From Harriotta raleighana (taxonomy: Eukaryota), in the NCBI GenBank assembly GCA_050575255.1, contig JBNZDD010013599.1:1987053-2051052 (forward strand): a DNA stretch of 64,000 nucleotides, in the 5' to 3' direction. The notes beneath the pieces are model-generated. The model worked only from the letters and a program-made list of their open reading frames with translations, did no database searches and was not told the origin of the DNA. This document shows, in pieces, positions 16,300-52,406 of this stretch; the stretch's first letter is position 1, and every line of letters begins with the position of its first letter. A program made the translations under genes and the position numbers.

Positions 16300-16780
16300 G
16301 TCATGAGCCCCCCATCTACCCGATTCTCGCCCGACTCCATTGGCTCCCCATCACCCAGAGGATTCAATTCAAGATCCTGGTCCTCAACTTCAAAGCCCTC
16401 CGTGGCCTTGCCCCCACCCTACCTCTGCGAGCTCCTAACCCCCTACTAACCTGCCCGCCCCCTCCGCTCAGCAGGCTCCGGCCTGCTCCATGTCCCCCGA
16501 CCCACTCACTCCACCACTCAGCTACTCTGCCTCCAACCTCTGCCCCCAACTATCCCGCAGTCCTTCCCCCTCGCCCCCTCTCTAGCCTCCTTCAAGTGCC
16601 ACCTCAATACCCTCCTCATCGATGGTCCCATTGGTCACCCCAATTCCGCCCCCCTTTCCCTCCACCCTCCCCTTCCCCAACCCCAGCCCGGGGTTGAAAT
16701 AGTGACCGTTCAGCACTTTGGGACGTCCTCCTGAGGGAAAAGGCGCTATACAAGTGTAATCTTGTTGTTGTTATTGTTGG
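16300..16780 (+). mobile_element. L2 LINE 3' fragment (decayed ORF2 end + tail)
   Basis: PILARLHWLPITQRIQFKILVLNFKALRGLAP; cactttgggacgtcc...aaggcgctatacaagtgtaa(ttg)n tail. Confidence 0.9.
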
Positions 16781-20318: not shown

Positions 20319-24331
<4,013 letters not shown>

Positions 24332-28137: not shown

Positions 28138-28302
28138 TTAGTTTTTCCACTGTTGAATCTGAAGCTCCTTCTTTTTTCTGATAATTTTGGCCACGTCATT
28201 CTTCAGTTTACCCACACAAGTCTCCAGCTCTCCTCCCAACGCTTTGATCAGCTCAGTTCTTTCATTTGCAAAGAACCTCAAGGAATGAACATGACCCTCG
28301 TC
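28138..28302 (-). CDS. KIF28: KIF28-like last exon
   Basis: LRFFANER...[32 protein letters not shown]. Confidence 0.87.
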   Translation of the reverse strand, partial: DEGHVHSLRFFANERTELIKALGGELETCVGKLKNDVAKIIRKKKELQIQQWKN

Positions 28303-31300
28303 CTAAAATCAAAGCGGACAAGGAACTCCGATTAACCGACCTCACCAAAAGGTTTTCACGTTTCACGTGTGGTGTGTGCGTGTGTGTGTGTTTGGAAAAG
28401 CCTTCCAGACCTATGTTCAAACCCATCAGAATGACAGAAGCAATTGAGTGCAAATATAGTTCTGCAGTAGAAAAAGATAGAGTAAGTAGCATGTATCTGA
28501 ATAAAATTAACAGCAAATATGTGTACAGAAATAAGACAATTTAAAGGCTTGGTTGGTGGAAAGAACATTCCCCATTATTTTGTGGGGCTTGAATAGGAAA
28601 CTTCAAAGCTCTATCCTTGCTTGTCGCTTGTTAATCTTGATGCATCGCCTCTAATTTCTGTGCTCGCAACCCAAGTCAAACAAGCTGTTCACATCTACCT
28701 TAACTGTGCAACCCTTTTCTTNGCTTGTTAATCTTGATGCATCGCCTCTAATTTCTGTGCTCGCAACTCAAGTCAAACAAGCTGTTCACATCTACCTTAA
28801 CTGTGCAACCCTTTTCTTGCAACTTGCAATCACCTTTACAGAGAGCTCTTTATGAACTCTCTCGCCATTGCTCAATTGTCCTCTGGGAAGTATAGGGTTG
28901 CAAAAATCTCCACAGGATGTGGCTTCATGAGTAGCCCGTGTAAGACTAAAATAACAATTTGACTTTGTGGGGCTGTGAAGAATTCCAAACAATGAAGAAT
29001 CATTCCATTAGCTGAATTCTCTCCCAGTTACACACATTAAATCGCTATCTAGAGGAAAGCCAAGGCCGTTTTCAAAGACTCTCAAGATGGAACCTTTAGA
29101 TTTAATTAGATTCGCTAACTTTTTTTCCTTCTGCTTTTGGATCTCTTCATCATAAGTATACCTTCACTATTTTCTGTTCCACTACGCAATACAGTACTGT
29201 ACCTTTGATTCAGTTGTATCTGGGGCTTCTGTTTTTAGTGCAGTGAGTGTTTCATGTTATTATACTTTAGATTGTATTTACTTTAACAAGTACTTTTGAC
29301 AAAGGCAATCGTCGATGTCTTTTTTTTCCACGATGAGAAGAAAATGGGACCCAACGAACTTCAAGCAGTTCAGGGTTGAAATCAAGCCTATGGCACAAGG
29401 TCAGTGATAAGCAGATGCAAAGGAATTCTCTCTTACCAGTGGCCTGATCTCGTTCAGGTGGATCAGTCTCCCTCTCACTCCATTCATGCTGAAGTAGAAT
29501 GCCTTGAGCGCTTTTGCAAACTCAGCATCCCAGTTGGGAAAGGGTGACTTTAGGTTGGACCTATTGTCAGTTAATTTCGCTGCGTTCCCGCATGCAACTG
29601 AGGGCACAGATTTAAGGTAATCACAAAAGGAATTAAAAGGGGAGGTTGTAAACATCAAATCTTTTCTCAAAGAGAGAGCAGTCGGGACTGCAATTCTCTA
29701 CCACAAACTATTGTCGGGCAGAGATCATAAATTATTCAAAAAGCCAACTACAGTAGATTGATACTCAGGAAAAAAAAGAGGATGATGAAAGAGTACGGTG
29801 ACCAAGCAATAGAGTGGGATTAGATTGGATTACTCAAGCAGAGGAACACACTAGCAGAGTCGTGATGGGTCAAATGGCCCTGTTTCTGGGCTGTAATATT
29901 CTGAGATTCTGTAATGATAAGTTAAGATTTAATTGAGGGCAAAGGAATGAGTGAAAGATCCAGTAGTGAGCAAAGCAGAGCACAACACGCAACTGACACT
30001 AACTGCTGCTATCGTGGTCTGAGGCCAGTATTCTCAGCTCTGCTGCTTTCCCTCGTATATCAAAGTTGTCGCGTTTCAGGATGCGATTTGCTTCCCTCAA
30101 GCCCGCAGTTTCCTGCTCCAGCGTTTTGAGTTGCTTGGATAGTTTGAGTCTGTGCTCTTCATAATCCTGAATTGGCAACAGACAGCAAAGTATGTTCAAT
30201 GCGTTGGATCGTCTGGGATTATTATCCTCTCTGGCCTCTCACTCGCAGGAAAAGAGGTAAAGCATTAATGGTATGGATGCAAACAGTGGGCAACACAGTT
30301 ACTTTTTATCAAACATACCAGTGGCTCAGATGTCTGTTGGTTCCTGTAGCACAAATCTAGTAGAACACTTCCATCGCTTGAGAGTGGGATGCCATCAAAT
30401 ACAGTATCCATTTCCTGGCAGCCTTCTGACATACAACATAATGATTGTTTGTGGTCGATTAGGTTCGTGCAAATAACTCTCCCACCCAGAAATATTTCAT
30501 TTTAAAGAGGCAATAAATCTTCACGGATCGAAACTTGACAAAAGAATGGGGTAAAACTTGCGGTGTTCATTAATCCATTGCTGCAATTAACATTAACATT
30601 AACATGGAAACCTCGAAAATCCTTCACCAAAAGTGTTTTTCCTCTTGGCAAAAAGATCCAACGACTTTTTTGCTGAAGTAATTGAAGTAAAGTATTCCCT
30701 GGAAGCAAATCCGACTGTGATAGCCAATATACATACCTTGGAGGCCCCAGAGTTGCAGCACCAGAGCCTGGGTTTTCAGATAACTGAGGAAATCCGTGGT
30801 GATATGTTGAACAGTGAAGCGCATCGAATAATCCAGATCGGGGTTTGCGTTGCTCCAGGCCGCAGGGGTGTAGAATACGGTAGGAAAGTCATACAGCTCA
30901 AATCTACAACACACGAATCATCACACTACCATTTGGGGAGATGCCAGTGAGGAGCTCGATATTCAATCAATGATGTTATGAATGAATAGCAATGCTTATA
31001 CGCACAGTTAAATCAACGCAAGAACAACTTGGATTTATATAGCGCCTTCCACGCCGGACGGAGTCTCCNCAATCAACGACAACAAGAACAACTTGGATTT
31101 ATATAGCGCCTTCCACGCCGGACGGAGTCTCCGAGCGCTTCAAATCTGGTGCTTTGTAAATTTTGTGATGGTGTGTAAGAGAGACAGACAGACATTTGGA
31201 TACTAGAGGTAATTCAGAGGTATGGTAAAATGTGAGCATTCGGATTAAAATATCTGCTAAAATTCAAGAAACTGATGGACTGAATGGCCTTATCCTGTTC

Positions 31301-34300
31301 TATGCTGAAATAGGTTTCTACTTGTGAGTGATTTATATCTGCAGATCTAAATTACATTGATTTATATTTACTATTCTATTGCAAAAACTATATCTATATC
31401 AGAATTGTTACAATGGCGGTTTGTTCCAAATTTCTATTGATGCATTTTAAACATTAACCTTTCTTCACACACAGTGCAGTGTGATAAGCAGCGTATAAAC
31501 AGAAGAGAAAAAAGCCACAGTGATTTTCAAAGCAGCAGGACTGAAGAGTGATCTTATAGAGTTATTGTTAGTCTTTTGCTCATTCCATGATCTCTAATAT
31601 CCTCAAACAATTCTTAAAATAGTTTAATACAGTAGTTTAAAAGTAGATACATAGATCTTAGCTACAATAATAAATAAGATAACAGTCATTAAATTATGAG
31701 TGATGTGCATTATTGATGCACCTCTAGCCACAATGGTTTGCAGTTCAGATTGAATTTGGTTGGGCTTTTAGCGAACAGACCAGAAGAGGAACTTGCACGT
31801 GAAAATGATCGATGGGGATCAATGGCGGACTTCCATCAAACAAATAACATCTTCCAGTTGTCTCTAGTTATCGCTGTGGCTTCAGGAGGCCCAGTGAAAG
31901 AGCGCATCGCGAATGCCAACAGCTTGAGTCTGCTGTTGAGTCAGCCCAGCTAATTGGATTGAAACCTCAGGTGTTCGGAGCCATTTGCAATACCCCTGGT
32001 GGTTTGAGATAAAAGCCGGGATTTCTCACCCAATTTGAACTCCTCTACTGCTGTTCTCGCGGATCCACCTCACTCCCAAACACAGACTAATCTGCATTTG
32101 AAAGTCCATGCGTTTCCCCAGAAGATTATCAGGATCAACAACGACAGATTCCTCTCCCAATGGACTAAACAAAGAGTACACACATCAAATTAGTTGCTGT
32201 TCCTACTGTAATTGCGGCTTCTCTCAAGGTGTTCACGTTCAAGAGATTGCAAACTGTGTTCTCTCCACCCATATTGTTGTAAAATTGTGCTACATAGAAA
32301 TATGTTGTTGTATCACAGGCATCTTATTCACAGAAAACAAAAGAATGATAAACATTTAATGTACAGTACATAGTCCACTAAAGAATCAGAAATGTACAAT
32401 TATATATATATACATATACATATAGATATTAGGATGTGCTCGATGTTCTTGTGATAAATCAATTTATTTGTTTGATTTACTAGCTGGCAGAAAGTGACAT
32501 TTTGCCCACATGAATGGGGAGAAAATTTACTCTTATTTATGTCAAATGATTAGAATTTGGCAGATTGTTGAATTCCTGCAAAAGTACTTCGAGGCGAATG
32601 ACCTTAATGTTAAAGCTGTGGATGAAAAATTTCCTTTCCTTTCTCCACATGCCTGATAATAATCCCTCAAGAAATCAAATTGGTCATTTCAATCCACGAA
32701 TGTTTGTGGGGACGCTGCTGTGCACAATTAGCTGCTTGGTTTCGCCCACAAATTTACAGTCAATTCACTTTACGGTATATTCTGTGAAGCAGAATATTTT
32801 CCTACAAAATACAGTCACTACACTTGCAGTAAATCCTACCTAGTACTTTAACACATCCTCACAATGTGAAAGGCCCCGAATCAAATGCAAGGATTATTAT
32901 TGCTTCATAGCTAGCGGCTGTTACATGAATGATGCAATTTTATAAGCATATTTTCAAGTTTGAATTTGTATCAGAATCCACAAACATATCTTAATTTGTC
33001 AGAAATGAAAATTGAAACAACAAATTATAAGGCAACAGCCAAATCCGAAAATAAAAATAGTCACTAGTTATCATTATGATACATATGAAGGGCTATGAAC
33101 ACGTCCACACTTACAAATTTCTACCAAGTGAATACTTAGTTTGCCCTGAATACACATTTACTATATTTATAGCGCACATTCACATTATCCTCTCGTTCTC
33201 ACACAGCTGCTCTTATGTGGGTTCATAATTTAATCGTATTTTTATGTAAATAGTTAAGAACCTTGTAAATCTACAGCATATGTTTTGTGTAAATGTAGGA
33301 ATAGTGTTTTCATGGCCCTCCGACTCACCCCATCCCTCCTCTCATTCAAGGCCTGACTCCGAACGTACAAGTCTTCTTTGACTATGTTTACCTTTCACCT
33401 TCCACTGCCCTCACCCTCCTCACAGCTCCCACACGTGGCTTGGGAAAACAGCCAGCATTCTCAAGGCAAGTAGTTTGCAACATCCTCCTGATGTGAAAGT
33501 TTTAACTAAGTTTAAACTGTATGCTATGAGTTAGGATTTGGTCCTGCAATGGGCAGTGTTCTATGGAGGGACACTGAGGTTTTTTATTTTCCTTTATAAT
33601 GTCCTACTATTCTGGGTCTCGAGCTGCCAAATAAAAACTATTTGTCATCCTCTCAATCCACCTTGGCCTTTTAAATTTCTTAATTTGGATTCAGGGGGAT
33701 CTCATTTTTTCCCCCAGTTGTTTATTCCTGCAGACAACGCACCATTCGAGTCATGTCTAAGCTTGCTCAGGCACGCTCATGAGAAAACCCTGGCCAGTTG
33801 TGTCTCAATTCCTATTTGTAAGAAAGATATTTTCTTTCATCCAATGCACATTTCTCTAATCATTCATACATCATGCACGAGGCTGTATTTAAAACATAAT
33901 CTGCTAATTTGGGCATCCTACTTTAAGAAGAGCATTTCTGCATTGGAGATGGATAAGGGAAGTTTGGGGTCTTGAGTTTAGGGAGAGACTTGCAGAACTG
34001 AACTTATTGGAGAACTGATTCAGAGGGGAACAGTGACAGAGATATTTTAAACAATGAGAGGTTGAAATGATATGGATGTAACCAGTCATCTGGCTCGAAT
34101 GAAAACACAGAGCTGGAAGATATGAGTTCAACCATGAACATGCCTCAAACAACAACTTTCAGTTATTGTTTTAAGTCAATTGATGCTGTTATGATTAAGT
34201 CCTTCAAGGAGAGTTGTATAAATACCTGTTTGGATTAGCACTGAAAGTTATATGGATAGTTCTTGCTGAAATAACAATAATGCATCCATTTGATATAGCA

Positions 34301-37300
34301 CTTTCCCATGTCTTCAATAGTCCTACTATTTTTTTTTTAAAAAGATTAAATTATTCACTTAACTTGAGTTACAAATCTGAAATGATGATTGTGATCTTAC
34401 TCTCCACTCGGTGTGCAGGTTAGCAGTTTGATCTGAATCACTGCTTCTTCCTGTCCTCGATAGTTATTTATGTCCACCTGGTCTTCAAAGGTCATACAGT
34501 AGGCCAAAGGTTCCAGCCACACATGAGCACTGCATTCACATAAGCAATGCATTCACATAAGGAGCAGAAACACACACGGGGAACAAGAATAACACAAATG
34601 GCAGTCTTAAGCATGCAATGCTGAAGATCTAAACAGTCTGTAAATATTGGGATTTCCACACTTAAAGAAGAAACAAACAAAAATTTTTTAACTGGTCAAA
34701 CGTAACGGGTAACAGGTTGAAAAACAGATGGTAAAAAAGAGAACTCAATTCGGATTCTCACTGATGTACCTCCCGAGATGCAACGACTCGATAGGGTCCC
34801 AGAATACATCTTCTTCCAGATCAGTCTGGGTTTCTCCACTTTCCACAAAGTGTTGGTAAACTTCTTCAATCAAAGGCATTCGATCGGTGAACTTGTCCAG
34901 CAACCAGACTTCAACCTTGGAATAAAATAAACCAACTGTTGTTTCCGTCACATGAAACACACAGAAACACACACACACACCACACACATATACTCACATA
35001 CATACGCTCACTGTACACAATCTGCTCTGTTCATATTTCTGACATGTTCTTTGTTTTGTCTGACACTATTGAAATCACACATTCTCGTTGAAGGAAGAGA
35101 CGTTACAAGTGTGATATTGGGGGGTCCAGCATACCCCTAAGCAATAACACTAGTAAATTGGGAAATCCCATACTAAACATGCATGAAAGATTCACTGGTG
35201 TTAACTTGTGATATGTGTCAGATCCCATTTAGACGTTAACCCTTCATCCATGATTTAGTTGGACTACAGTAATGTGAATGGTTTGTTGCTTCTGGAAAAG
35301 ACAAGAGAGTTTCTTCCATTATCCTGGCTCCCAAATAAAATTGATCATTGACTACATGTTTCATTGTGGGACCTAGAGTGGGAAAATTGCTACCATGTAC
35401 ACCAATTACAGTCATTAGATGCACGATTAATTTTGTGTAATGCTTTGAGATGTCCTCCCAATGTGAAAGCCATTATATCAAATGTAAAGCTCATCATCAT
35501 TACTATTGCACAGATTCACTCAGACTGAGCTGACTCACCTGTTTGGTTAGTTTGTTCGTTACCTTCACAATAATTTCTTTTTCCAACTCCTCTCCCTTGG
35601 CATCAGTCAGTGCCAAGTTTTTTATCTCTGGTTCGAAGATAACACCCTTTGAAAAGGGATAGAAACAGGGTAGGAATTGTTAATGCATTTAATTACTACC
35701 CCTGCGTCTTTCATCTTTTCTCTCTTCGTCAGTATGCCACCCCAAACCCCGTTTAAATGTAAGATAAGTGGGGGTCTTCCAGACATTTGCTAATGCCATT
35801 CTATACCTGGCTGCTAAGAGACAGGAATTATTTTTTCCGGGGAAAAACTGTTCTGTTGAGCTTTTCTCCTCCAAAAGACAATGTTCAAAAANCTGTGAAA
35901 AACTGTTCTGTTGAGCTTTTCTCCTCCAAAAGACAATGTTCAAAAAAATGTAATTTTGTTGTTGTTTAGCTATAGACTTGGCACATCCCCTATGATCACC
36001 TAACTAGTATAGGGAGTTTCCCGGAAATTTCCCCTTGTATGGTATGGAAACGCACACTCTCTCCCTGGAGAGACACACCTAGTTTACCTAATTCTGGAGT
36101 ACGAGGCACTTGGTCGGCAAGAGCCAAGTCTTGGAGCTTTATCCACTAAAATCGAATAGCCTGCCACTGAAAACTGTATGCCCACCTTTCAGTGCTTGCC
36201 ATATGTCTTTGTCTAACTAGGTTCACTTGTGCTAGCTTGGCCTGGTTAATAGGAGACATGTAGGAGGCATCCTTCCCCTCAGTGATATGTCATTGTAAAT
36301 TGTCTGAATTTAGTGTTCCGAATCTGCCCCAGACTCATCCACTGGGGCAGGTTTTGTTCCTAAGCTGAGTTCCTTGGTGCTCCCAGCGGTATTAATAAGG
36401 AAAGTGCACTTAATCTACCCACACAGATTTGATTAATAAGCTCTCATGAGTACACCAGGTTTTAGCATAATCATGGCATTAACAAATTAAAGTCAAAGGC
36501 CCTTTCTGAAATGATAACAAGAAATGAACAAATGTACCTTGTTAAGTTCCTCACTTATTTGGTTTGCCCAAGCCACTGACGGCATGATTGAGATAAAATC
36601 CTGGATAATTCTTGTCAAATTAGGATCCAGATTTTCTTTCTGCTTTCCGCCTGCCACTGAAAAAATAAATGGGAGGCATTTATTCTGTTGATAGATAAAG
36701 GCAGTTATTCAACCAATAATGAAAAAAAACAAGATAACAGAGAACATTGGAAGAGGTAACTGATATCTGGAACCAGTGCAAAATGAAATACAAAAAGGCA
36801 GCTTTGCTCCTTACTCATTGGCTGGTTAGAGCCAAGAACGTCAGACATAAAATGACCAAAACAATACTTTTAATAATAATTCATAATGTTTAAACAACTT
36901 GAAAGAAAATGTTTAAAGATTTAGATTAAAAACAAAACATTGGGTATTCAAAAAGGATAGAATTTGATTTGGTGCACAGCTCATGACATGAAAAGCACTA
37001 TACAGATGTAATTTTGTATTTAATTGTTGTAGAAGCTGTAGGATAGTTTGTGCTGCTCCTATGCTGGGTATAGACTCTCGTGTATTGGTGAAAGACTAAT
37101 TCTGTGCTGGGCTAAGGAGGACGGTTCCATAGAGTGGAGGCTCGCATGGAGTATAAACACCAGCAATTAATAGTTGGTCTGAATGGTCTGTTTAATGATT
37201 TACATGTACTTTGTAATACCATGTATACGTTGGCTTTTGGGATAGCACAAGAAGAGGCAGATATTGTCTCTCGCCAAAGTAGAAACCATTTGATCAGAGT

Positions 37301-40300: not shown

Positions 40301-43300
40301 AGAACAGACTGAGCAATTTAATCATCATTTAATGAATTCAACAATAAGGAAACCGCTTGATCTGAAAACAATACTGATCTTTATCGGGCTCATCAGGATT
40401 GATGTAAATTAGAAATTGATCAAATCCATCATTAATATGTGGTATTACCACATATATGCAATATATGCCTTTGCTAATTTATAGTTGTATTTACCCTCAC
40501 AAGTATCAAATAGTGAAGCTGACTTCTAATTCTTAAATTTGTGCTTCAAATGCATAAAACCACTCTCAGCTCAGTCTCTTCCCAGAAACATTCAGAAGTA
40601 TCTACTTATCATAGATAGATAGATTTCTAGCATGCATCTGAGACATGTAGTGAGGTGTCAGAGGCACACTAAGACAAAGGTTGGCATTTCGTGGAAGAAT
40701 CATGCATCACAAAGAGAATCCTGTATGAAGTAAAGGATCATTAAGCCCTAGGAACAGATGGAAGTAACATCCTACAAATACTTGAATTGATTCGTTATTA
40801 ATTTAATCATCTTTAAAAGTCATAGTAAATGCTGATTGACCTTGCTATGTGATTAAGGACTGGAGGGGGCAGATTTGATTGCATGTCACGATTACTTGAA
40901 AAAATGAAATGAAATGTAAATGATCAAACTTAATCAGTTTCTTTAATGGACAATGATTTTTGACACATATGGAGTGCTAAATATATAAACCTAAATAACT
41001 AAGATTAATAGCATACTCTCGGGGAGGAATCCTGTTCTACTCGAATCCTATAGCATTTCAGAGAGTGTGGCAAATTGTCGAATTCAATTTTAACTCTGAA
41101 TCAAAATGGTTTCAACCCGAAGGTTATACAGCATTTAAGAATTTCCCAAATTCCAAACCTGGGTGGAAATTCTCTCAGTTGGTGCCTCGTTACATTTTAA
41201 ATGCCTTTCTTCTGAACGTTTTTGACGTACCTGTGCTCTTCAGAAAGAACAACGGATAAGAGAAACCAGTAATCAGCTTTGACTTACCCAAGCCCTTTCA
41301 GAACAATGTCCTTCTCCACAACGGATGTTCGACCTATTGTGCAAATGCCTGCAATATTAAAATAATGCTCTGCTTTCAATGACCAGAGTTTGCTTGTTGT
41401 AGACCATTATTATACGCTTCATTATAAGCTTCCTGCTCAGCTCTCAGCGAGAAGCCAACTAATTCATTTGCAAATTTCACTCGGTAATATGAACCACAGG
41501 GAATACATGCAAAAATCATTACAAATAATAAGTTGCAAATCAATGCGATTCAGTTCTCTTTCTTTTAACCATTTCAGGCATGAACCGAGTGTTTCAACAC
41601 AACCCCACACAACACGCTTGGGAGCGTCAAATGAGATAGATTCAAATCTTTTTGCACAGTCATGGGTTTAACTCTCGGTAGCCATTGAACGGAAACGGCC
41701 TAAGACGATTAGACGGTTTGGAAACTGATCAATGTTACTGTTAGTCATATGTGACGGAGTCCCTCTCGTTCTCTTTGTCCTACCATTTTGAATAAAGTGT
41801 CGAACCACTCCAGACAGTTGTGGGTCTTCATTGACATTCAGCAAATAGGGAAACTCCGACATCATTTTCTCTTCCTGGAAAATAAAAACACGCAAGTTCA
41901 CTTCACTTCTACTTCTCTAGATTTTAAGCATTGAAAAAGAAAATTAACATGGTTAGTTAGACAGAGGATTATTCAATTGTAAAGCATAAAAGAGAGGAAT
42001 TCGATGGATTTCTAATATTAACCCATTATTATTTAATAGATTTTCAGGTTCATCATTGGAATCTTATTTTCCATCGCTGCCAAAAGAATGTTTCTGTTTG
42101 CTTTTGGGTCACTTAACTGTGCTCTTGTCAGCTCCAAGTGGATTGTAAACGATTATTGGGGGATACATATAAAGCAGACATACAAATGAGCAATCCTCCC
42201 TGTAATGGTACTTCTCAAAGAATTTTTAAAGCAAATCAGTTCTGTTCCGCTTCACAAATTAGAATTTTTTTTTCAAAAGTGCCATTTTGCATTGGATTAA
42301 CATCAATTAAAAGACTGCATGACAATATTAAATGAGACTGAAACCTCTAAGGAAGATAGGGATCTAAAACATACTTAATTTAATCAAGCTGCACGATTAG
42401 GAAAGATAAACAGTAAATCATTGCACTTAGTATCTTAAGCAGAAATTCTTTTTGAAGATTAAATTGCAAAAATCGTTCGTCTTAAATTAATGCCTAAATG
42501 CATTTCCTTGGGGTGGGTGGGGGTGCGGATGAGATGGTGGTGGGGGGTGGTGTTCAACAGAGTAGAGCCTCTCCCTTCTACCAGGAGGTAAAGAACTAAC
42601 AATTATCAAATACTCCTCAGGCAATGAAGGGTATTATAGGATATTGCAGACCCAGTTAAAATGGGACCCATCTCCAAAGTCTAATGGTTGATTAGCATTC
42701 CAATAAGAGCAGCGTTAGAATTAATGCATTATTGGGACTTCCAACACAGGTGGTGAATATATATTGCAGTATATTGCATTTACAAAACACACCAAAATAC
42801 TGCACAATGTCATGAGTAGATGACAACAGCAATTTTAAACCTTGGAGTACGAAGAAACTAGTGATCCTCAATATCAGAGGTTGTAAAATAAAATATACTC
42901 TACTTAGAATAGCTAGTAGACCGTATGAATGGAGAAAAGAAGAGTGAATCCCTGAACGCTTACCTTTATAATGCTGGAATATTGCTGTTCCCATTCTCTC
43001 TTTGCTTCTTCTAACTTCTGTTGCCATGATTTCTGCATCTCTTTTAATCGCGTTTCATTATCCGTGATTAGTCTTCGAAGAGTCTCTAATTTTGAACAGA
43101 CATCATGATTGCCTCTAATTTGTTCTGGTTACTCTATTGCCATTAATGAGCACCAGAATAAGATACCCATAACTGGCTGAATACAACAGCTCAAGCAGTA
43201 TATTCAAAGTAAACCTTCAGAAATGCCAAAACGCTTCCAAAGGATTCTGTTTCTTAATTTATCAGTTTAGAGATTCTACGCAGGGCATATGGAAATTCAT

Positions 43301-46300
43301 ATGTAATTTCCAGTAATCTTAGGAGAGTACAGATCTATTAACCCAAACTATCTGCTGCTGAAGTGCTGTGAGACAGATAAATTACTTAGTCTTGGCGATA
43401 AGCAGGAAACAAAACAACACTGGACGATTTGAACACACATTTCTTGCTCAGCAGAATCCCCTTGGAAAATAGGAAGATCCCTAACGCTGCATTTATATAG
43501 CGCACATGGTGGTGATTCAAGAAGGACAACACACACAGATGTCCTATCACCTGAAGGAGTTCGTTTTCAGGAGCAAGGCGAATGCGAAAGAAATCAACTG
43601 TGTGATGAACAAATTTGAACAGCGGTAAATCCGCTTGTCATTGCAATCACGCCATTTGTTACTTCCTGGCTGAGTTTTCAATGTTCAGCGTGCTGTTACT
43701 CAATTGTCAACAGAGCATTTCTCACTGACGTGGAGAAAGAAATGAATGCCATTTACAGTTGTGAAACGAGGGCGGCGTTCAGCATCAAGTCATCCCTTAG
43801 GGCATCGTAACGAGTAAAAATTACCATCCAAACCTTTGCTAGCACAATAAAGGTCTAAAGACATTCACTTATTTACCGTTACTTATCATTTCATTGGAGC
43901 ATCTTCGATGCTCACTGATCCAGGAGCACACGCTATTTTTTTTAATAAACTCGAAAATGTCTCCACAGTAGGTGTCTACCAATTAGCGAGATGAGTATTA
44001 AAATAATAATCCAACCTCTCTCATCCATGTGTTTGTCTCCTGCCTTCTCCAGATCTGTAATTCTTGCCTGCAGCCTGGTATTATCATCGTTTAGATCCCT
44101 GAGAAGCTGTTCAGTTAGGCTTTCGTTAATCATTGCTCTGTTCTGGATACTCTTAGCTCTTGTTTTAAAAATAGAGAACACACAAATTATATCTGTATGT
44201 CATTAGCATTGACGCATGTATCATTATAAACCGTATGACTGTATCGTTAGGCATAACATAAAGTTATTTTAATATCTCCGAAGTGTCTTGCTTCACTAGA
44301 TAATATTGGTTTGGGGAAGATGGGCATCAGAGAGGATGCTCTGGGGATAGATGCGCCATTTCTGCTGGGAAATTAATATGGAGGATGATGTCCGTATCTA
44401 GATGGAAAGTACAGGTCTTCATTGTGATGACTTTTAATAAAGTTAAATGCATTTTTTGTGTTTCTCCACATTAGGTCTCTTCCCTCATTGCCTTTTCGGG
44501 TTGCGTACTTCCAAACTAGACTCGACAGACAGAAGAGATGAGCACAGTGACTGATGCTTGACTGTTTGTGAATGAATGGAGAAAGCTCGGATCTCATTAC
44601 TTCTAATGGCCTTTAATAAGTTTTGTGATTGCGGAAATGTTTTCAGTACAGGGAGACAAATGATGTATGTTGGATGTTTTTTTTTAACCACTTGAGAGGC
44701 AGTTCCCAGCTGAACAAGCCCAGGTTTGAGTAATAGATTAGATTGGTTACCAACTCATTCGTTTAACAATTGAATCACAAAATTAATAGCCAATGCAGGA
44801 ATTAATGTAAATGCCTAGTCTTGGAATCAATGTAAGCATTTCAACACAAGCTAATGATTTCTAATGATCACAACACAGTGAAATGAAAGAAAGAGGACTT
44901 CGACGTCTCCCAAACGTCTTTCTCAAACAATACTTTAAAAGACATTCGTTTTGTGAACAGAGGTATACGTCCCAGAAGCAATAGAAGGAAATGGAAATAA
45001 GTAGCAGGAACTGAAGATATATTGCAGAATCAGATGGGAAGATTCAGAAATAAGCAATCCTTTGTCATTCCCCACCTTTCCGCAAAGCGTAATGTTGACA
45101 TGGTTTCATCATAATTGATGTCTGCTGGACTTATTGTTGCGATCTGTAAAGCAGGTTTGGGGCAAACAAACAATAAATCATATCAAATGGATCCAGGATG
45201 TATATCATCTGCTGTACTTTGTTTATTTTAGAAGCTTAATGTTTTCAAAAGTTTTTTTTTAAAAACTTTCTACTCTCTGACAAAGAAACCTCACACAGGC
45301 AATCCATCCACTTTCAAATCAACTCCAATCCAACATCCGCATGACTCAAAAACAAGAGAAGCAAACGAAACTGATAATTATTTGGATGTTGAGGAAACAG
45401 GCTGAAATAATGACACTTCAAACCTGGAATAAAAAGGGAATCTTAGCTTTTCTCTACCCAATTCTCTTTCTTTCTCTCTCTCCTAAAAGGGATGACACTG
45501 TGCTTGAGTACAGTTTCATACGAGTTGACAGCTCTCCAGTATCTCATCTAAGCTGCCAATCTTCACGGATGAGCTGAGTCAGTGAGTGTAGATAAGCCAT
45601 CAGATCATAGGGGACATCACAGATGATCCCAATCTCATCGAATATTCACGAACACGCACACACATACACACACACACATACACACAGATTCCAGAAAACA
45701 AAAGCTTGACAAAATCGGAATTGTGAATACAATCTAATATTAATCCTTTCCCTATAAAAATTGTTGTACATATAGAGTTTGACCTCTTCATTCATTTTAT
45801 TTAAGATCAGCTAATGACCTGGCTANGAAAACAAAAGCTTGACAAAATCGGAATTGTGAATACAATCTAATATTAATCCTTTCCCTATAAAAATTGTTGT
45901 ACATATAGTTTGACCTCTTCATTCATTTTATTTAAGATCAGCTAATGACCTGGCTAATCTCCAGGTCAGAGATTGTTAGCCCCCCTCTTCTTGTGCTTCA
46001 CTGAAAGATGCTGATTAGCATTCAGTTATTTGGATTTTATTTCCTCGACCTTTTAGCCTCCTGATGGTCCAGTGATTTGTGGCAAACCATCTGATTTTTA
46101 AAATTTGATTAGATCCAATTCCAGCTTAGCAACTTGTGGACGTCAGGGATATGTACGCAAGTTATGAAACAATCGCTGATTTGTCCCACTCCTATGCGCA
46201 GACCCAATGAAATACAAAGATATCCTTCCCCAGTGAAATTGTGTCCCATTGTGTATGATATCGACGTACGCAAATGAGGCTACTAAAATCAGTGCTGAAT

Positions 46301-49300
46301 GTGAGTGTGGGGCACTTGCACTTCACGTCACAATCTTGCAAACAGGACTCTTGTTTGCAAGATTGTGTTCACTGGAGCTGAAAGTATAGATGTACTAATT
46401 TCCTCTGGCATTTTCTCTCGAGTGGTTTGTAACTTCAGCTACCTACAACGTAGGCAGCCGAAAGACTTTGTCCTGTCTGAGCTGTGGAGAATCAGTGGGC
46501 ATCTCTATCAAATGATCAATACTCACCAAAACAGTCTTACTGTTGCCTCCCAGGGATGTGCTGAGCAGTCTGGTGAGCACTGAATTGCGGTAGGGAATAT
46601 ACAGAACTTTTCTTCCAAACGCTTTGTCTGATAAGGCACTGACAATACATAAGAAACCCCACGCAGCTACTTTAAGCACAGGCTTATAAAGATATCAGGT
46701 GAAGCTACACTGACAATGTTTACCATTTACAGTATACAGAGCTGTGCAGGAAAGCGGGCATAAATATTAAAACCACAGACTGAACTCCAAAGGCAATATC
46801 AGTTTCATTCGCTTTCCGAGGAAAGGTCAGGTTGGGTTAAGCTTACCTAATAACATTTCCAAGAGTTGTTAGACTGAGATTGATTGCCCGCGCTTCATTG
46901 AATCTGTCAGAAGCGACTCCTGCACTCCGCTGTCTCTCACTCCCAGCCAAATCCACCAGATCAATTTCTGAATGCTTCGTCGTGGGCTGGTCTGCAAAAA
47001 CCTGCTGCGAATACTAAATAGCTGTTAATTTGTTTGTGAAACTGGACATCCATCGTGCGAGACTGAATTACACTTGCGGAGAAGCATCACCATCAAGGAA
47101 AAAAAAACGACCAAATTCATCACAAGTCACGAAACATGAAGATGTACCAAATTGTGGGTGAACAGGTTCTTTCAATGAATGATGAATATAGTGTTTGGCT
47201 GCATAGGCGAAACTGTGACTCTTAGAAAAGCTCAATGTAAGTTCTTTAAACAATCCCTCTGTTCATTCTGTTGGGAGTAAGATACTTTTCTTCAGCAATA
47301 TTCGACAGAATTCCTAAAGTTAGACTGTTAAGGATTTCCTTTGAACCTACAACTAAAAATATACCCAGCCCAATCCCCACATGTGTCTGCTAGACTATAA
47401 TTGTGTTAATGGCCCCGCCGCTAATGTATTCACCAATCCCGAAAAATATATTGCTTTTCAATAATATCCCAGGACGGAATCACATGATTCTAATTTAACG
47501 TGGATTATGGAATAAATTCTAAGATAGAAAAAGAAAACCTTGCAGTTGATAGTTAGCATTGTTAGGACATAAATAATGGCGTCAATGGGAGATAATTCAC
47601 TCGCTTTGTGGCATGGGACAATAACATCTTGGCCTTGGACAGTTAAAGCCACTCTTCTGATGGACAAGCAATATTGAGGCATAAATCAGGGCTGTTACAT
47701 TTGAGAGGCAATCATGCAATACTAGTTTATAGCACAGGTGGGTTTAGGGAGGTGATTTATGAAAGGTGGTTCCCGAGTTCCTTCACTGGCACTTAAGACT
47801 CAGGCATCACCTTTATACCTTACCACACACATGAGGTAAAATAGATTTGCTCTACTTACACAGCATTTCAAAGCATCTAGAATTTTACAAATTCTTAAAC
47901 ACTTTACTTTTGAAGCCGACTTTCTGTGCGATGAATCAAGAAATAGAGATAACCAACCTCAACGTTAAGTCTAAATTCAATATTTTACTAAACTCTGGAT
48001 GCTCTAAACTTACGGGCTCCCTGAACATTCACATAAGTCTAGGCAGGTCTGTGTTTCCATCAGTAGTAGTGTTTTCAGCCTCTTCAAGATTCAAGATGTC
48101 TTCAATCAAGAAATATTCATTTCTTGATTTATGACATGAATATGGATTCCCATCTGCCCCCCACCACAAACAGAATCTAAGTATTATTTATTATGACAGA
48201 TATGCAACCAGTCTTGACCTGTGACTTAATCCTAGAATACTTGTCGCCCACTTTCACCATTGCTGCCATTTCATTATTTCATTTACCCCTCTCTCGTTTT
48301 AACTGACGCCCTTGTTTTCATTGATTGTTTCCGTATCTGGCTAATGGATAGGATCAAATACCTTGACCTGTGAAATCGTCAAGTGTGACTTATGGCAGCA
48401 TGCAAATTGCACTAAATCACCTAAGATAATTCGCCTGTGATATCTCAGTGCTTCTTCTTCAAATTTTACCTGCCATTAGACATTCTATTTGATCACTCGC
48501 CGGCACGACAGACATTGCATAATGTATTCAATTTTATGAGACGTTACATTATGTTCATTAGAAGTGATACCACTGCAGGGCTTTTTCCCAACGTGTTGCG
48601 GAGTCTTAACATCAAATGTCAGAAGAATTACATGCTCCTCGCTGGTTTCCACTGTGGGCTTACACCACGTACCTGTTGAAAGCGAATGGTAATCACCATA
48701 TGAGATCTGCTACTGGTTGTGTTCCTATTAGTGGCAGCAGTGCTGCGATTTCTAATTCCTTGTTCGAGGAAAGCCTCTAGCTGCTTATAACTAGTGCACG
48801 GAACTGACTTGAGACACTCGACGTAGAATCCGTGGCTGCCTTCTCGCAATCGCAAACCGCTGGGCTTTCGAGCCTTGGACAAAAGGTCCTGAATCTTCAA
48901 AAATCAAAGGGATATTAATCGTTAACACAGTCGGGCAGAAATGGCGTTAAGATATTTCTACAGCTGTCACAGCTCATTTTGGTTTACATCAGCCAACGCC
49001 GATGGTTCCTTTGTTAGAGCTNTATTTCTACAGCTGTCACCGCTCATTTTGGTTTACATCAGCCAACGCCGATGGTTCCTTTGTTAGAGCTATCAGCTTT
49101 AAAGATCCATACTGAATATTCACAACATGCAAGAGAAAAATAGTGCATTTAAACAAATACTACACAAGGGAGAGTCATGGTTAAAGTTCAAAGAGATGTT
49201 ACATAGCAGCATATTGGATTATGATAGAGAGGTAAGACACTAGCTATGCCCGTTATACTCTCACGTCCTCCCGACGCGAAAGGCGTTCTAGAAACATATC

Positions 49301-52300
49301 TGTGTTGTCGTTGTTGGAGTGATGAAGAAGCGGAAGAAATGCTTTCCATTGTTCACATATGTTCAAAATGCCTGCCCCTGTTTGTATAATCAAACTAAAA
49401 TACCTAAATCTGGGTTTAGACCTGGGCGAATTGGAATCACATCTGAGTAACTGCGTGGAAAAGTCAATACACTCACTTGTTCATTGTAGATCTCGAATAT
49501 ACTGAAGTAAACCTGCAAGAGATGTCACATCATGAGTTACTGGCACTGTGTTTAGTGTGAGGCTAAATAAAATATGACGAGGATTCACTCTGCAAAAGGG
49601 TTGTTCCCGCTGCTTACGTGAAACTGTTTGTCCTCATTCTGATGCTGCTGAATTCCCTGAAAGAGTTCTTCACAAATCATGGGAACGAGTCCTTTGTTTC
49701 CACCATATCCTGTCATTGAGTAACTCTTTCCTGATCCAGTCTGTCCATAAGAAAATAGAGTTGCGTTGTATCCTTTCCACACATTCTCCAAGAGAGCTCT
49801 CCCAAGGTCACTGAAGACGCGTTCCTTGGAATAATTATAACGCAAATGAATTCCTCTTCACATTTTCATAACGCACACCACATTGTATTTTTATTTAACT
49901 TTGGGATAAGGTTTTAATTAATATCTGAGCCAAAGCCACAGTAATATTTCAAGAAATTCTTTGCAATGTTTGCACAAAATCCAATATGATTATGACAATC
50001 AGACCAATGTTAACTTTAATTACGTTTATATTGGGGGAGATTAATGCGACTGACCTGTCCCACATATCTGCTGTGAGGTCCGTCAGGCATGTAAACCCCT
50101 TGGTCATTCTCCATATATTCGTCAGTTGACCAGTAGCAATAATCAAAGAGAAATGTTCTCTTGTCGCCGAAGCTTTTGGGATCCACAATGGTGGTACGGT
50201 TTCCAAGCATGGAAATGATGCATTTGCTTCTCACAGCCTTTTCTCTCTTGCACACAAACGACAAACGTTGACGATATTGGAGGATATTTAGCGAACGCCA
50301 TAGCCAACTCAGGCCCACAAACGGTCAGCAACAAATAAGAATTAACAATGCCCTCAGTTCACACAATCGTATACATAACGCCGAAGATCAATTCAGTATC
50401 GTCGGATCATTTATGATCTACCAGATCATTTATCATAGGTGTGAGGGACGCTGCTGTGCGCAATTGGCTGCCGCTTAGCGCCCACATATGTAGAGTCAAT
50501 TCACTTTACAGTACATTCTGTGAAGCACTTTGAGAACAACAACAACAAGATTGCATTTATAGAGCGCGTTTCACGTCAGGAGGACGTCCCAAGGCGCTAG
50601 ACAGTTGGTTTAGGACTCGAGCAGGGGGAAATGATCAGGGCGAGGGGAGGGAGGGAGGGAGCGAGGAGGGGGTAGAGAGTCGAGAGGGGAGCTGAAGGCA
50701 CGGTCGAAGAGAAAGGTCTTGAGACCGGCCTTGAAAGAGGGAAAGGAGGAAGCGAGGCAAAGGCCCTGGGGGATGGAGTTCCAGAGCCTGGGGGCTGAGC
50801 GGCTGAAAGCCCGGCCGCCGATGGTGGGACGGTTAGGGCAGGGGATGTGGAGCAGACCAGAGCCAGAGGAACGGAGGGTACGGGCAGGTAGATAGGGGGA
50901 TAGAAGGTCGGAGAGGTAGGAGGGAGCAAGGCCGTGAAGTCTAGAAGACGTGAAAAAGCACTGCATCAAATGCAAGGATTATTATTAATTGCCAGGCAAG
51001 TATTGGGAGAACTATTTGAAGGCATTACATGCACATACGGATAGTAAGGAGTGGGGAAAAAAAAGCCCAGAGATCCTTCAATCTTCCTCCCCACCCCTAC
51101 TCGACAGTCCACCCGATATTCATCTACACATCTCTCCTGATCCTGGTCACCCAGTCCTCTCTTCTCTCAGAGACCAGCGGAGTTCAAAAACTGTAGAACA
51201 CCCCCTACACTCACGCAAAACAAGGAAAATTTAAAAGAAAAACGTTGTACCTGGGAAAATTCCCTCCCGACTCCAAAAAGCAGTCAAAGATTAAGCCACA
51301 TTTCACTCTGCTTTTTTAAATGAATTCAGAATGATTTTTCTGCACAAGCCTGCATGATTGGAACACTTTAGAGGCCTCGTGTGCATAGTCAATGCAAATC
51401 GCTAGTAGAAAATATGCTACGATTTATCAGTTGTGCTCAATTTTCCCCCCTATAACATTGGGCTCTCTTGGGTTTAAGCTGAATGCCCTTGTCTCATCTT
51501 TGTTCTTCAACTCTGAAGAAAATGTATAAATGTTTGGTTTGCAATCCACCACAGAGACCCCGATCTAAAACTCATCGGGATATTTTTTTTAAAAAGAATA
51601 AAATTTAAACATTGTTCAGCTGTCTGGGTTGATTTTCGTTTTAGATTTTGTGGGGAATAAATAGATTTATTTGATGGTTTTGTTTCTTGCACCGTGCACT
51701 CGTCCCCTATCGGAAACCACAACACTGGATTCTAGTTAGTCTGAATCATTTTGTACTATAATAATAATAATAATAATCCTTGCATTTGATATAGCGCTTT
51801 TCACATCTTATCAACGTCCCAAAGCGCTTCACAGAATATACTGTAAAGTGAATTGACTGTATATTTGTGGGCGTAATGCGGCAGCCAATTGCACACAGCA
51901 GCGTCCCCCAAACAGTCATGGATTGAAATGACCAATTTTATTATTGTAGTTTTTTTTTTTGGAGGGATTATTATTAGGCATGTGGAGTAAGGAAACTTGC
52001 CCAAGGTTTCGCCCTGATCTGCCTGGATTCGAACACAGGTCTCATGCTATCTCTGCGATGAAACAGTCGTTTAATGTTGTGTGCAGCTTTCGAGGTGGCT
52101 GTGGTCACCATGTTTATAATGAATGCGACTACACACATGTGGAAAATTACATTTTTTTTTTTTTAAAGTAGCATTCCACTGCCCAATGCTTTTCCAACTA
52201 ACACCTCACAACATTTCAATAGTTTTTAGGAACTGTTTAATTCAATTCTGTGCTGGAAAATAATCACTCTTTTTAATAGGTCCGCAGTCAAGGTTGCATA

Positions 52301-52406
52301 ATGGAATTTAATGTAAATGGCACTTGAAAATGTTGAAATGGAACTCGCTTACCTGATCGAATGGGCGTACACGGACAGCAACTTTTACGCTATCTGCATT
52401 GAGCAT
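28138..52406 (-). CDS. KIF28: Kinesin-3 family KIF28-like motor protein, 24 coding exons, 3135 nt, 1044 aa (motor, neck coil, FHA, C-terminal coiled coils)
   Basis: All 23 introns are GT-AG with matching phases and there is no internal stop. Motifs: [17 protein letters not shown] (P-loop), SSRSH (switch I), DLAGSER (switch II), [25 protein letters not shown] (HLDRVILG), FWDPIE. Family assignment is strong; ortholog versus ohnolog is unresolved. Confidence 0.9.
29437..29597 (-). CDS. KIF28: KIF28-like exon 23
   Basis: [26 protein letters not shown]; |gtaaga. Confidence 0.85.
29660..29912 (+). mobile_element. CR1-type LINE 3' end, diverged
   Basis: gtgggattagattgg...gatgggtcaaatggcc...ctgtaatattctgagattct. 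Confidence 0.65.
30004..30166 (-). CDS. KIF28: KIF28-like exon 22 (coiled coil)
   Basis: [27 protein letters not shown]; phase 0-1. Confidence 0.8.
30319..30425 (-). CDS. KIF28: KIF28-like exon 21
   Basis: [24 protein letters not shown]...; phase 1-0. Confidence 0.82.
30737..30903 (-). CDS. KIF28: KIF28-like exon 20
   Basis: [12 protein letters not shown]...[18 protein letters not shown]. Confidence 0.9.
32030..32164 (-). CDS. KIF28: KIF28-like exon 19
   Basis: [22 protein letters not shown]...CLGVRW...RGVQIG. Confidence 0.9.
32630..32900 (+). mobile_element. SINE, 5' truncated
   Basis: ctccacatgcctgataataatccctc...aatgcaaggattattatt. Confidence 0.8.
34401..34529 (-). CDS. KIF28: KIF28-like exon 18
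   Basis: [12 protein letters not shown]...[18 protein letters not shown]. Confidence 0.9.
34770..34915 (-). CDS. KIF28: KIF28-like exon 17
   Basis: [12 protein letters not shown]...[13 protein letters not shown]. Confidence 0.9.
35539..35646 (-). CDS. KIF28: KIF28-like exon 16
   Basis: [36 protein letters not shown]; |gtgagt. Confidence 0.88.
36538..36656 (-). CDS. KIF28: KIF28-like exon 15
   Basis: [21 protein letters not shown]. Confidence 0.88.
38366..38513 (-). CDS. KIF28: KIF28-like exon 14
   Basis: [17 protein letters not shown]...YEYFASELA; the phase 1 donor was chosen to fit the next exon. Confidence 0.88.
38745..39029 (-). mobile_element. tRNA-derived SINE, full length
   Basis: Reverse A box ctaaccactgagcta, B box, body and (aat)n tail. 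Confidence 0.9.
39185..39308 (-). CDS. KIF28: KIF28-like exon 13 (FHA)
   Basis: ILDKHAVL...ARVIINGSP...LRHL. Confidence 0.9.
41288..41348 (-). CDS. KIF28: KIF28-like exon 12 (FHA)
   Basis: ICTIGR...IVLKGLG; |gtaagt. Confidence 0.9.
41784..41874 (-). CDS. KIF28: KIF28-like exon 11
   Basis: [23 protein letters not shown]. Confidence 0.93.
42964..43085 (-). CDS. KIF28: KIF28-like exon 10
   Basis: LRRLITDNE...[17 protein letters not shown]; |gtaagc. Confidence 0.9.
44016..44158 (-). CDS. KIF28: KIF28-like exon 9 (neck)
   Basis: [22 protein letters not shown]...; phase 2-1. Confidence 0.9.
45076..45143 (-). CDS. KIF28: KIF28-like exon 8
   Basis: [22 protein letters not shown]. Confidence 0.93.
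46527..46638 (-). CDS. KIF28: KIF28-like exon 7
   Basis: [24 protein letters not shown]; |gtgagt. Confidence 0.95.
46847..47001 (-). CDS. KIF28: KIF28-like exon 6 (switch II)
   Basis: [14 protein letters not shown]...[12 protein letters not shown]; |gtaagc. Confidence 0.95.
48673..48894 (-). CDS. KIF28: KIF28-like exon 5 (switch I)
   Basis: IQDLL...[20 protein letters not shown]; |gtacgt. Confidence 0.95.
49477..49512 (-). CDS. KIF28: KIF28-like exon 4
   Basis: [12 protein letters not shown]; cag| ... |gtgagt. Confidence 0.92.
49618..49824 (-). CDS. KIF28: KIF28-like exon 3 (P-loop)
   Basis: [20 protein letters not shown]; |gtaagc. Confidence 0.95.
50055..50246 (-). CDS. KIF28: KIF28-like exon 2
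   Basis: [13 protein letters not shown]...FLFDYCYWS...YVGQ; aag| ... |gtcagt. Confidence 0.92.
50443..50988 (+). mobile_element. SINE 3' half split by an L2 insertion
   Basis: SINE sequence stops at tgaagcactttgaga (50535) and resumes at gtctagaagacgtgaaaaagc (50939). Confidence 0.85.
50536..50938 (-). mobile_element. L2 LINE 3' fragment, well preserved
   Basis: [24 protein letters not shown]...[17 protein letters not shown]...[14 protein letters not shown] plus (ttg)n tail. Confidence 0.93.
51760..52048 (-). mobile_element. Young SINE lacking the A-box end
   Basis: (aat)n tail, body and reverse B box ggattcgaac. Confidence 0.9.
52353..52406 (-). CDS. KIF28: KIF28-like exon 1 ([18 protein letters not shown])
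   Basis: ATG at 52406; donor CAG|gtaagc. Confidence 0.9.

Follow-up and report, generated by a model that had tools for sequence, protein, structure and literature searches.

An intact second KIF28-type kinesin gene in a chimaera, probably a survivor of vertebrate genome doubling

The 64,000-nucleotide stretch of Harriotta raleighana DNA analysed here (the window) contains an intact KIF28-like gene that is, very probably, a second KIF28: it would have separated from the canonical gene ahead of the divergence between sharks and bony fishes, likely through a vertebrate whole-genome duplication, and it is predicted to encode a self-inhibited, cargo-activated microtubule motor of the KLP-6 type. 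The ancestral jawed-vertebrate kinesin set thereby gains one gene, in a branch, KIF28, that is among the least understood kinesins. Below, clade A is the group of the window gene and clade B that of canonical KIF28.

The KIF28-like gene and its neighbours

This kinesin-3 gene lies on the minus strand (28138-52406), with its ATG at 52406 and its TAA at 28138. Our scripted, tblastn-based model has 24 coding exons (3,135 nt, 1,044 aa), GT-AG borders at all 23 introns and neither an internal stop nor an N in its exons, and it coincides exactly with the coordinates and the 1044-aa length given in an earlier note on this DNA. The protein is 89% identical to its Callorhinchus milii relative P0001 and 62% to that of paddlefish (P0013). 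Exons 1-9 (44016-52406, minus strand: 52406-52353, 50246-50055, 49824-49618, 49512-49477, 48894-48673, 47001-46847, 46638-46527, 45143-45076 and 44158-44016) encode the motor domain (PF00225), the neck linker and the neck coil. They are followed on the same strand by exons 10-14 (38366-43085: 43085-42964, 41874-41784, 41348-41288, 39308-39185 and 38513-38366), which hold CC1, an FHA domain with its D-loop (PF00498 on the ortholog P0001, E 8.8e-7) and the start of CC2. From alignment and model, exons 15-20 (30737-36656, minus strand: 36656-36538, 35646-35539, 34915-34770, 34529-34401, 32164-32030 and 30903-30737) carry CC2, the MBS domain and a MATH/C2-like beta-sandwich. The last four exons, 21-24 (28138-30425, minus strand: 30425-30319, 30166-30004, 29597-29437 and 28302-28138), encode a C-terminal extension past the KLP-6-alignable region, for which a search of the protein atlas gave no usable match; the model of the shark ortholog P0384 predicts a long coiled coil plus two helices there (helical residues 863-909, 935-962 and 971-1020).

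The block around the gene reads KIF26, NRAC-like, TMEM179, KIF28-like, a broken AHCTF1-like gene, INF2, ADSS1 and SIVA, the last three flanking the KIF28-like gene on the window's contig. We take the human 14q32.33 order to be the same minus two extra genes, the KIF28-like and the AHCTF1-like. The decayed gene next to the KIF28-like one has at least six disruptions and serves as an internal control. TMEM179 (20319-24331, minus strand) is an open four-exon model of 232 aa (24331-24030, 23134-22997, 22066-21988, 20498-20319), one of three TMEM179 paralogs in the genome. The order described in the earlier note, NRAC-like on the plus strand followed by TMEM179 and KIF28-like on the minus strand, is present in the sequence, though the NRAC-like gene is its weakest element. 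Two last exons of this NRAC(C14orf180)-like gene, a paralog of the CNST C-terminus, were placed (10708-10846 and 15893-16092, spanning 10708-16092 on the plus strand), and its 5' exons were not located. The resemblance to CNST, to which the note had pointed, gains from the alignment of these two exons with the final pair of CNST exons in the block described below (score 57 against 25+/-4, reached by none of 2,000 shuffles) and from the intron between them, which has the same phase in both genes. Assignment to the NRAC family itself fared less well: the last exon falls below the PF15555 cut-off (E 0.0018, 18.9 against 27 bits), and it was missing from the results of a genome-wide PF15555 search.

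Two KIF28 genes and the origin of the duplication

A second KIF28, which the note proposed to look for near CNST, SCCPDH and AHCTF1, is indeed there: contig C13529 of the same genome carries an intact canonical KIF28, only 49% identical to the window gene, in the order CNST, TMEM179-like, SCCPDH (weak), KIF28, AHCTF1, ADSS2-like. Exactly two KIF28 tail matches exist genome-wide. The two genes share 19 of 23 introns in place and phase, and the canonical copy lacks the one that separates exons 17 and 18 of the window gene. The window gene lacks the CNST/SCCPDH and AHCTF1 flanks of mammalian KIF28 and has paralogs of those flanks instead; six pairs (KIF26, NRAC/CNST, TMEM179, KIF28, AHCTF1 and ADSS) occur in the same order and orientation in both blocks. 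We take the window block to be of the 14q32.33 type and that of C13529 to be of the 1q44 type, by comparison with the human gene orders.

Maximum-likelihood trees (31 chosen rows in IQ-TREE and 67 in FastTree, from more than 200 proteins; LG+G4 without site mixture) recover clades A and B with full support, each repeating the jawed-vertebrate phylogeny. In IQ-TREE, support is 100/100 for clade A, 100/99 for clade B and 100/100 for A+B against rows from amphioxus, hemichordate, annelid and mollusc. Among invertebrates, KIF28-like proteins fall into two subfamilies. The C13529 copy groups with tetrapod KIF28 and the window gene does not, which rules out a single KIF28 with rearranged linkage. 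AU tests reject the monophyly of all chondrichthyan copies (p 1.7e-83), a grouping of sturgeon A with sturgeon B (p 2.9e-164) and clade A with bony-vertebrate B (p 4.5e-4, the weakest of the three, under LG+G4 only). Tree and tests together date the duplication to the interval between the invertebrate-chordate split and the gnathostome radiation, and they uphold the proposal that the gene is a sister of KIF28 and not its ortholog. The opposite reading, in which this is the ordinary mammalian KIF28 ortholog moved beside TMEM179, or else arose by a duplication within cartilaginous fishes or within sturgeons, can appeal to its database name (KIF28 or KIF28P) and to its 48-52% identity to bony-vertebrate KIF28. 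However, the CNST-AHCTF1 block holds another copy that groups with tetrapods and the AU tests go against all three groupings, so that we give this reading a negligible probability and reject both of its forms.

A third block, on contig C13073, is GC-rich (55%) and gene-dense and keeps only TMEM179 and ADSS within 55 kb. The TMEM179 of the window is closest to that of C13073 (53% identity against 39-40%), and ADSS shows no such pairing (74% against 78%); we dropped a distance-based ordering of the three blocks because the two genes conflict. C13073 was also rejected as the true TMEM179/14q32 ortholog, since it is the window's contig that carries INF2, ADSS1 and SIVA, and since by score the ADSS exon of C13073 is nearer ADSS2.

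Tree and synteny show that an ancestral block running KIF26 ... CNST/NRAC, TMEM179, KIF28, AHCTF1, ADSS was doubled. The same pre-gnathostome paralog could have arisen by a large segmental duplication from KIF26 to ADSS. Our comparison covers one region (two contigs of a 13,732-contig assembly, over about 0.4 Mb and 0.85 Mb), ADSS distances fail to resolve three copies, and no lamprey or hagfish KIF28 appeared among the matches listed (20 of 146 new representatives named). Yet there are three TMEM179-ADSS linkages, one of them on the GC-rich, gene-dense contig, as two doublings with loss predict. The two KIF28-type loci are presumably those of chicken chromosomes 3 and 5. Both chromosomes are described as having pure CLGA blocks (PMC7269912), which also speaks against a segmental event, to which we allow a very slim chance. 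Since no cyclostome sequence was found among the matches listed, the choice between genome doubling and segmental duplication, like that between the first (1R) and second (2R) rounds, rests on chromosome maps and on how far the blocks are collinear. For the genome doubling that we prefer, 1R is the timing we favour with some confidence: the blocks that bear KIF28 are both rich in genes, with about 40% GC, like two alpha copies.

A predicted KLP-6-type motor with an altered lock

The N-terminal motor motifs are intact (PF00225): the P-loop GxxxxGKS at aa 109-116, switch I SSRSH at aa 224-228 and switch II DLAGSE at aa 254-259. From these motifs we infer microtubule-stimulated ATPase activity and plus-end motility. 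Clade A has just two basic residues in loop 12 (the K-loop), and canonical KIF28 is as poor in them. The FHA domain after CC1 scores above the PF00498 cut-off in the orthologs P0001 and P0013, and its D-loop is kept in the window model. Homology to KLP-6 is full-length, including MBS and MATH, and a PH or CAP-Gly tail is absent. In the PDB, C. elegans KLP-6 (7WRG; E 2e-169 against shark ortholog residues 4-825) is alone in matching at E<1e-100, and it is also the top Foldseek hit. Like KLP-6, the window protein has a motor-NC-CC1-FHA-CC2-MBS-MATH layout, a long loop 3 and an aromatic residue at the F120 position; unlike it, it continues at the C-terminus for a further 190 aa or so, a helical stretch without counterpart in 7WRG. 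Nor does it have the SIV motif that closes helix alpha2a in KLP-6: the window protein has SMT, and none of the 17 clade A rows among the variants listed has SIV. In KLP-6 this motif is described as conferring resistance to ADP (PMC13346673).

Most of the KLP-6 lock residues are kept. N406, W417, E453 and D454 of the window protein correspond to KLP-6 N410, W421, E457 and D458, whose mutation is reported to release KLP-6 (PMC9314371). In the MBS, D665 and R666 correspond to KLP-6 N661 and R662; the R662 equivalent is kept in 13 of 17 clade A rows and is C in three Acipenseriformes rows. Helix alpha4 has the clade-specific residues N272 and A274 (K275 to N and G277 to A relative to KLP-6), so that both sides of the motor/MBS contact, alpha4 and N661, are changed clade-wide. 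By alignment, the shark ortholog does not share the KLP-6 lock residue R606, and the AlphaFold model of that ortholog (pTM 0.48, rmsd 11.8 to 7WRG) does not show the compact locked state. By analogy with KLP-6, the motor would rest with CC1 and the FHA D-loop folded onto the motor domain and ADP trapped, would be unlocked by cargo or an adaptor binding to the MBS/MATH tail, and would then step towards plus ends at the expense of ATP. The rewired alpha4-MBS contact could give clade A an activation threshold or an adaptor different from those of canonical KIF28. Membrane cargo in ciliated or neuronal cells is our tentative guess. For mammalian KLP6, one study reviewed in PMC8077471 points to mitochondrial morphology and transport.

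Compared with vertebrate KIF28/KLP6, the gene has the same domain order, paralogous neighbours and a fully supported sister position, and it differs from the canonical copy in the extra intron, a one-residue deletion in loop 8, the alpha4 and MBS lock residues and its position beside TMEM179/INF2/ADSS1 instead of CNST/SCCPDH. Both copies are present in eight species, with 45-51% identity between A and B. The two chimaera copies are each 89% identical to their C. milii counterparts and 61-62% identical to those of Acipenseriformes; these equal values suggest a similar constraint on the two. Clade A might then be a largely redundant copy with the expression domains and biochemistry of canonical KIF28, its substitutions being neutral or mutually compensating. 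Rates after the gnathostome split are similar for both copies, clade A evolves significantly faster in just 6 of 12 relative-rate tests, the two changed residues belong to one interaction network and may compensate, and repeated loss suggests dispensability. Nevertheless, two lineages have kept the gene intact for more than 400 My, the stem branch of clade A is long (0.37 against 0.13), and 15 columns, plus N661 to D/E, are fixed differently between the clades; redundancy is a serious but rather unlikely explanation. The model of KLP-6 autoinhibition could readily be tested on such a natural pair, which differs at both sides of a lock contact whose structure is solved.

Retention, probable loss and a second ELYS gene

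Among the matches listed, clade A accounts for 17 of 212 proteins, all of them from chondrichthyans or Acipenseriformes. The surveys took the best 120 of 619 and the best 120 of 271 matches, with length limits; among the annotated proteins listed, clade A was absent from gar, bowfin, teleosts, coelacanth, lungfish and all tetrapods, and neither copy was seen in bichir. Human KIF28P is a pseudogene at 1q44. A loss in mammals, as first proposed, agrees with these annotations and is too narrow a description, for the absence extends across neopterygians and sarcopterygians while sturgeons and paddlefish keep the gene. Clade A was thus likely lost in bony vertebrates other than Acipenseriformes, and the annotations would imply at least two losses, in neopterygians and in sarcopterygians.

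This distribution could suggest a motor specialised for the cilia of electroreceptors and retained solely where ciliated ampullary organs exist. Chondrichthyans and Acipenseriformes are both electroreceptive, ampullary cells are described as bearing an apical cilium (PMC5429088, PMC13069148), and KLP-6 is a sensory-cilium motor in an account that also calls its absence from mammalian cilia an open question (PMC12646758). However, coelacanth, lungfish and salamanders are electroreceptive and have only clade B among the matches listed, and many ohnologs persist in slow-evolving lineages without a sensory cause. Two published gene lists, both annotated by best hit, lend the idea no support: the paddlefish lateral-line-enriched list has three kinesin rows (Kif17, KIF1A and KIFC1) and none named KIF28, and the sturgeon ampullary/neuromast table has no KIF28-named row. 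The three supplements of PMC13069148 that we searched gave no match either. We regard a dedicated electroreceptor motor as improbable.

Clade A KIF28 is a real and unnamed member of a familiar class, that of ohnologs kept in slow-evolving fishes. The elephant-shark Pax6 family members and shark globins, as far as their accounts describe them, share with it a 2R-era duplicate, collinear flanks, patchy survival and automated misnaming; here the genes are a motor protein and an adjoining nucleoporin. Clade A proteins are already in RefSeq and UniRef, as "kinesin-like protein KIF28/KIF28P", the name of the true ortholog. In sharks, rays, chimaeras and sturgeons the label thus mixes two genes about 50% identical, and trees, selection scans or expression tables that treat both as orthologs are wrong. 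Our literature search found no published report on clade A KIF28 or on a second ELYS/AHCTF1 paralog.

Such an ELYS/AHCTF1 paralog lies just upstream of the window KIF28-like gene and is broken in the chimaera. It might be that the early jawed-vertebrate 14q32-type block held two extra diverged genes later lost in mammals, a KIF28 paralog with rewired autoinhibition and its own cargo and a second ELYS with a beta-propeller and a helical Y-complex-binding part and no AT-hook, a combined picture that we consider conceivable and doubtful. If true, sterlet, axolotl and coelacanth would have two kinds of nuclear-pore seeding factor. The ELYS-like protein is full-length in predicted models of sterlet and axolotl, both tractable animals, is present in coelacanth, and matches only ELYS clusters in the protein atlas.

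The window gene and a second KIF28 copy

The KIF28-like kinesin gene lies on the minus strand of the window (the window being G000:C13599:1987053-2051052 of a 1.10-Gb assembly), between positions 52406 and 28138. Its exons, located by tblastn and trimmed to splice sites, give a model of 24 exons and 1,044 aa, in which all introns are GT-AG and the exons are free of stops and of N. One motor exon matches Callorhinchus milii 'KIF28P' at 96%, and the whole protein is 89% identical to its counterpart in that species, which marks the animal as a chimaera other than C. milii. The earlier note had looked to a second KIF28 near CNST, SCCPDH and AHCTF1, and a canonical shark KIF28 query finds one in that block (C13529:902748-933867, minus strand). 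It is intact, with 23 exons and about 1,050 aa, and a tail exon search of the genome returned exactly two matching places. The two copies are 49% identical overall (61% in the motor, 43% in the tail). Nineteen of the 23 window introns share codon and phase with the other copy (by script), as does intron 1 (by reading the sequence); two further introns have the same phase, but in gappy alignment regions, and one is absent from the C13529 copy.

Phylogeny and taxonomic range

Two homolog searches (best 120 of 619 and best 120 of 271 matches) yielded 212 proteins, which by best-scoring group comprise 17 of the window clade (clade A), 126 canonical KIF28 (clade B) and 69 invertebrate references. 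All 17 clade-A proteins among the matches listed belong to chimaera, sharks, rays, sturgeons or paddlefish, and a 50%-cluster library added Mobula and Huso fragments only. Support in IQ-TREE (LG+G4, 31 rows) is 100/100 for clade A and 100/99 for clade B, and FastTree (67 rows) recovers the same two clades. Each divides into cartilaginous and bony fishes, and together they form one group (100/100) that excludes the amphioxus, hemichordate, annelid and mollusc rows. No bichir or cyclostome KIF28 of either clade is among the matches listed. That the window gene is not the ortholog of KIF28 is borne out by this separate clade and by the rejection of clade A grouped with bony-vertebrate B (AU p 4.5e-4). 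A single chondrichthyan clade (AU p 1.7e-83) and a sturgeon-only A/B pair (AU p 2.9e-164) were also rejected. Both copies were found in eight species, at 45-51% identity between A and B, and we regard the window gene as almost certainly a pre-gnathostome paralog.

Among the matches listed, the annotated proteins of gar, bowfin, carp, coelacanth, lungfish and tetrapods are clade B only. In these annotated proteins the claimed absence from mammals is not particular to them, and the pattern implies that clade A was lost at least twice. The stem of clade A is longer than that of clade B (0.37 vs 0.13); relative-rate tests between the two were significant in only 6 of 12, and later rates are alike (to C. 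milii, 89% in A vs 89% in B; to Acipenseriformes, 61-62% vs 61%). Amphioxus, hemichordates and lophotrochozoans carry two deep KIF28/KLP-6-like subfamilies (P0045/P0023/P0221 vs P0093/P0102/P0025; KLP-6 is the C. elegans KIF28-type kinesin-3), and both vertebrate copies stem from one of these subfamilies. KIF28 tail matches also occur in choanoflagellates and one filasterean.

In RefSeq/UniRef both copies go under one name, and the full-text literature searched, which covers few subscription journals, yielded no account of a KIF28 or ELYS paralog in vertebrates. The window paralog is unnamed in the literature found, its sequences being already in databases; the observation of the earlier note is confirmed and its interpretation supported.

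Paralogous blocks and their other genes

The window block on C13599 reads KIF26(+) at 1.75 Mb, NRAC-like(+), TMEM179(-), KIF28-like(-), AHCTF1-like remnant(-), INF2(+), ADSS(+) and SIVA(+), with the three genes NRAC-like, TMEM179 and KIF28-like in the order and orientation first noted. The second block, on C13529, reads KIF26(+) at 0.25 Mb, CNST(+), TMEM179-like(-), a weak SCCPDH-family match (E 0.05), KIF28(-), AHCTF1(-) and ADSS(+). Six gene pairs share order and orientation in the stretches read (KIF26 itself and the part from NRAC-like/CNST onward), with KIF26 named at family level. ADSS scores best to isozyme 1 on C13599 and to isozyme 2 on C13529. In human terms the window block is of the 14q32.33 type and the C13529 block of the 1q44 type. 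A whole-genome-duplication origin of the window gene is very probable, and we lean towards the first round of vertebrate genome doubling (1R) as the event.

TMEM179 occupies window 24331-20319 (minus strand, 232 aa, open frame). A divergent paralog lies between CNST and KIF28 at C13529:877582-882233 (minus strand, L004-L005), at 39-40% to the other two TMEM179 genes; no TMEM179-type gene is known at human 1q44, and this paralog may be another retained ohnolog. A third TMEM179 and a third ADSS stand side by side on a 55-kb contig (C13073:13000-28800, L042-L043) whose GC content is 55%, vs 40-41% for the other two block contigs. This contig groups with the window block by TMEM179 distance but not by ADSS distance. 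It is a candidate for a copy of this block on a micro-chromosome, its TMEM179-ADSS adjacency being what a beta micro-chromosome would show, to judge from PMC7269912.

The two NRAC-like exons (window 10708-10846 and 15893-16092, plus strand) encode an NRAC/consortin-type C-terminus. PF15555 scores below cut-off on the last of them (E 0.0018) and its genome-wide profile search did not recover the NRAC-like exon; support for the name NRAC is modest. The resemblance to CNST remarked on earlier is upheld, as the alignment to the CNST C-terminus beats all of 2,000 shuffles. The exons have a basic RVxF-like motif, intron phase, a transmembrane segment and a YC..VC pattern in common with CNST (C13529:861747-863562), which suggests that NRAC arose as a truncated ohnolog of CNST; the full-text literature searched listed none that connects the two. 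Decayed reverse-transcriptase fragments, which we take to be LINE-type, lie at window 16248-16700 and 50600-50980, along with many short copies, and a short interspersed repeat is abundant in introns and intergenic DNA.

Past the right end of the window, about 20-55 kb 5' of the KIF28-like start codon, lies an AHCTF1/ELYS-like sequence (C13599 about 2061000-2094800, minus strand, L021-L025). Compared with intact relatives its frame is broken at four points and carries two in-frame stops, so that it reads as a pseudogene in the chimaera. A perfect 1,606-bp tandem copy within it (C13599:2088982-2092195, L024-L025) may have arisen by recent duplication or be an artefact of the assembly. Annotated relatives comprise a sterlet protein of 1,516 aa, an axolotl protein of 1,548 aa and an 869-aa coelacanth fragment, and none was found in sharks (4 matches among 2,648 candidates). 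Two Acipenser gene models (P0012, P0016) span ELYS-like exons into the clade-A kinesin, so the adjacency holds in sturgeons; the fusion reflects either annotation error or read-through transcription. Over an 82-residue stretch compared by eye with mammalian ELYS, chimaera canonical AHCTF1 reaches about 76% vs about 41% for coelacanth ELYS-like, and the [RK]GRP AT-hook core is absent from the sterlet and axolotl ELYS-like proteins. Position and distance point to an AHCTF1 paralog.

Motor and predicted lock

P-loop, switch I and switch II are intact in the window protein, an FHA domain is detected in its orthologs, and the window-clade protein is homologous to full-length KLP-6 from the motor through the MATH domain. 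The predicted structure of a shark ortholog (pLDDT 80.6) has full-length KLP-6 (PDB 7WRG) as its top fold match; with a pTM of 0.48 and an rmsd to 7WRG of 11.8, the model does not predict the folded state. In KLP-6, according to PMC9314371, the motor is wrapped by CC1, FHA, CC2 and MBS, trapping ADP, and most interface mutations tested restore activity, including N410A, W421A, E457R, D458A, R662A and R606A. Mapped by alignment to KLP-6, lock residues N406, W417, E453, D454 and R666 are kept in the window protein, and KLP-6 R606 is not kept in the shark ortholog. The network between switch II/alpha4 (D272, K275, E276) and MBS (R658, N661, R662) is changed on both sides: position K275 is N in 16/17 clade-A rows vs K/R in 37/39 clade-B rows, G277 is A in 17/17 vs G in 38/39, and N661 is D/E in 17/17 vs N in 39/39. 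The 11 outgroup rows agree with clade B at these positions (N661 in 9/11). Unlike KLP-6, whose ADP resistance is attributed to the SIV motif in PMC13346673, the window protein lacks this motif; the loop-5 aromatic is retained.

The window protein would be a plus-end motor, resting as a folded monomer with an altered lock and presumably released by a tail-binding adaptor. A role as an electroreceptor motor would fit the taxon range of clade A but is unsupported in two gene lists. The cargo of the window motor can be guessed from family likeness: polycystins are KLP-6 cargo in sensory cilia (PMC12646758), and one study linked mammalian KLP6 to mitochondria (PMC8077471).
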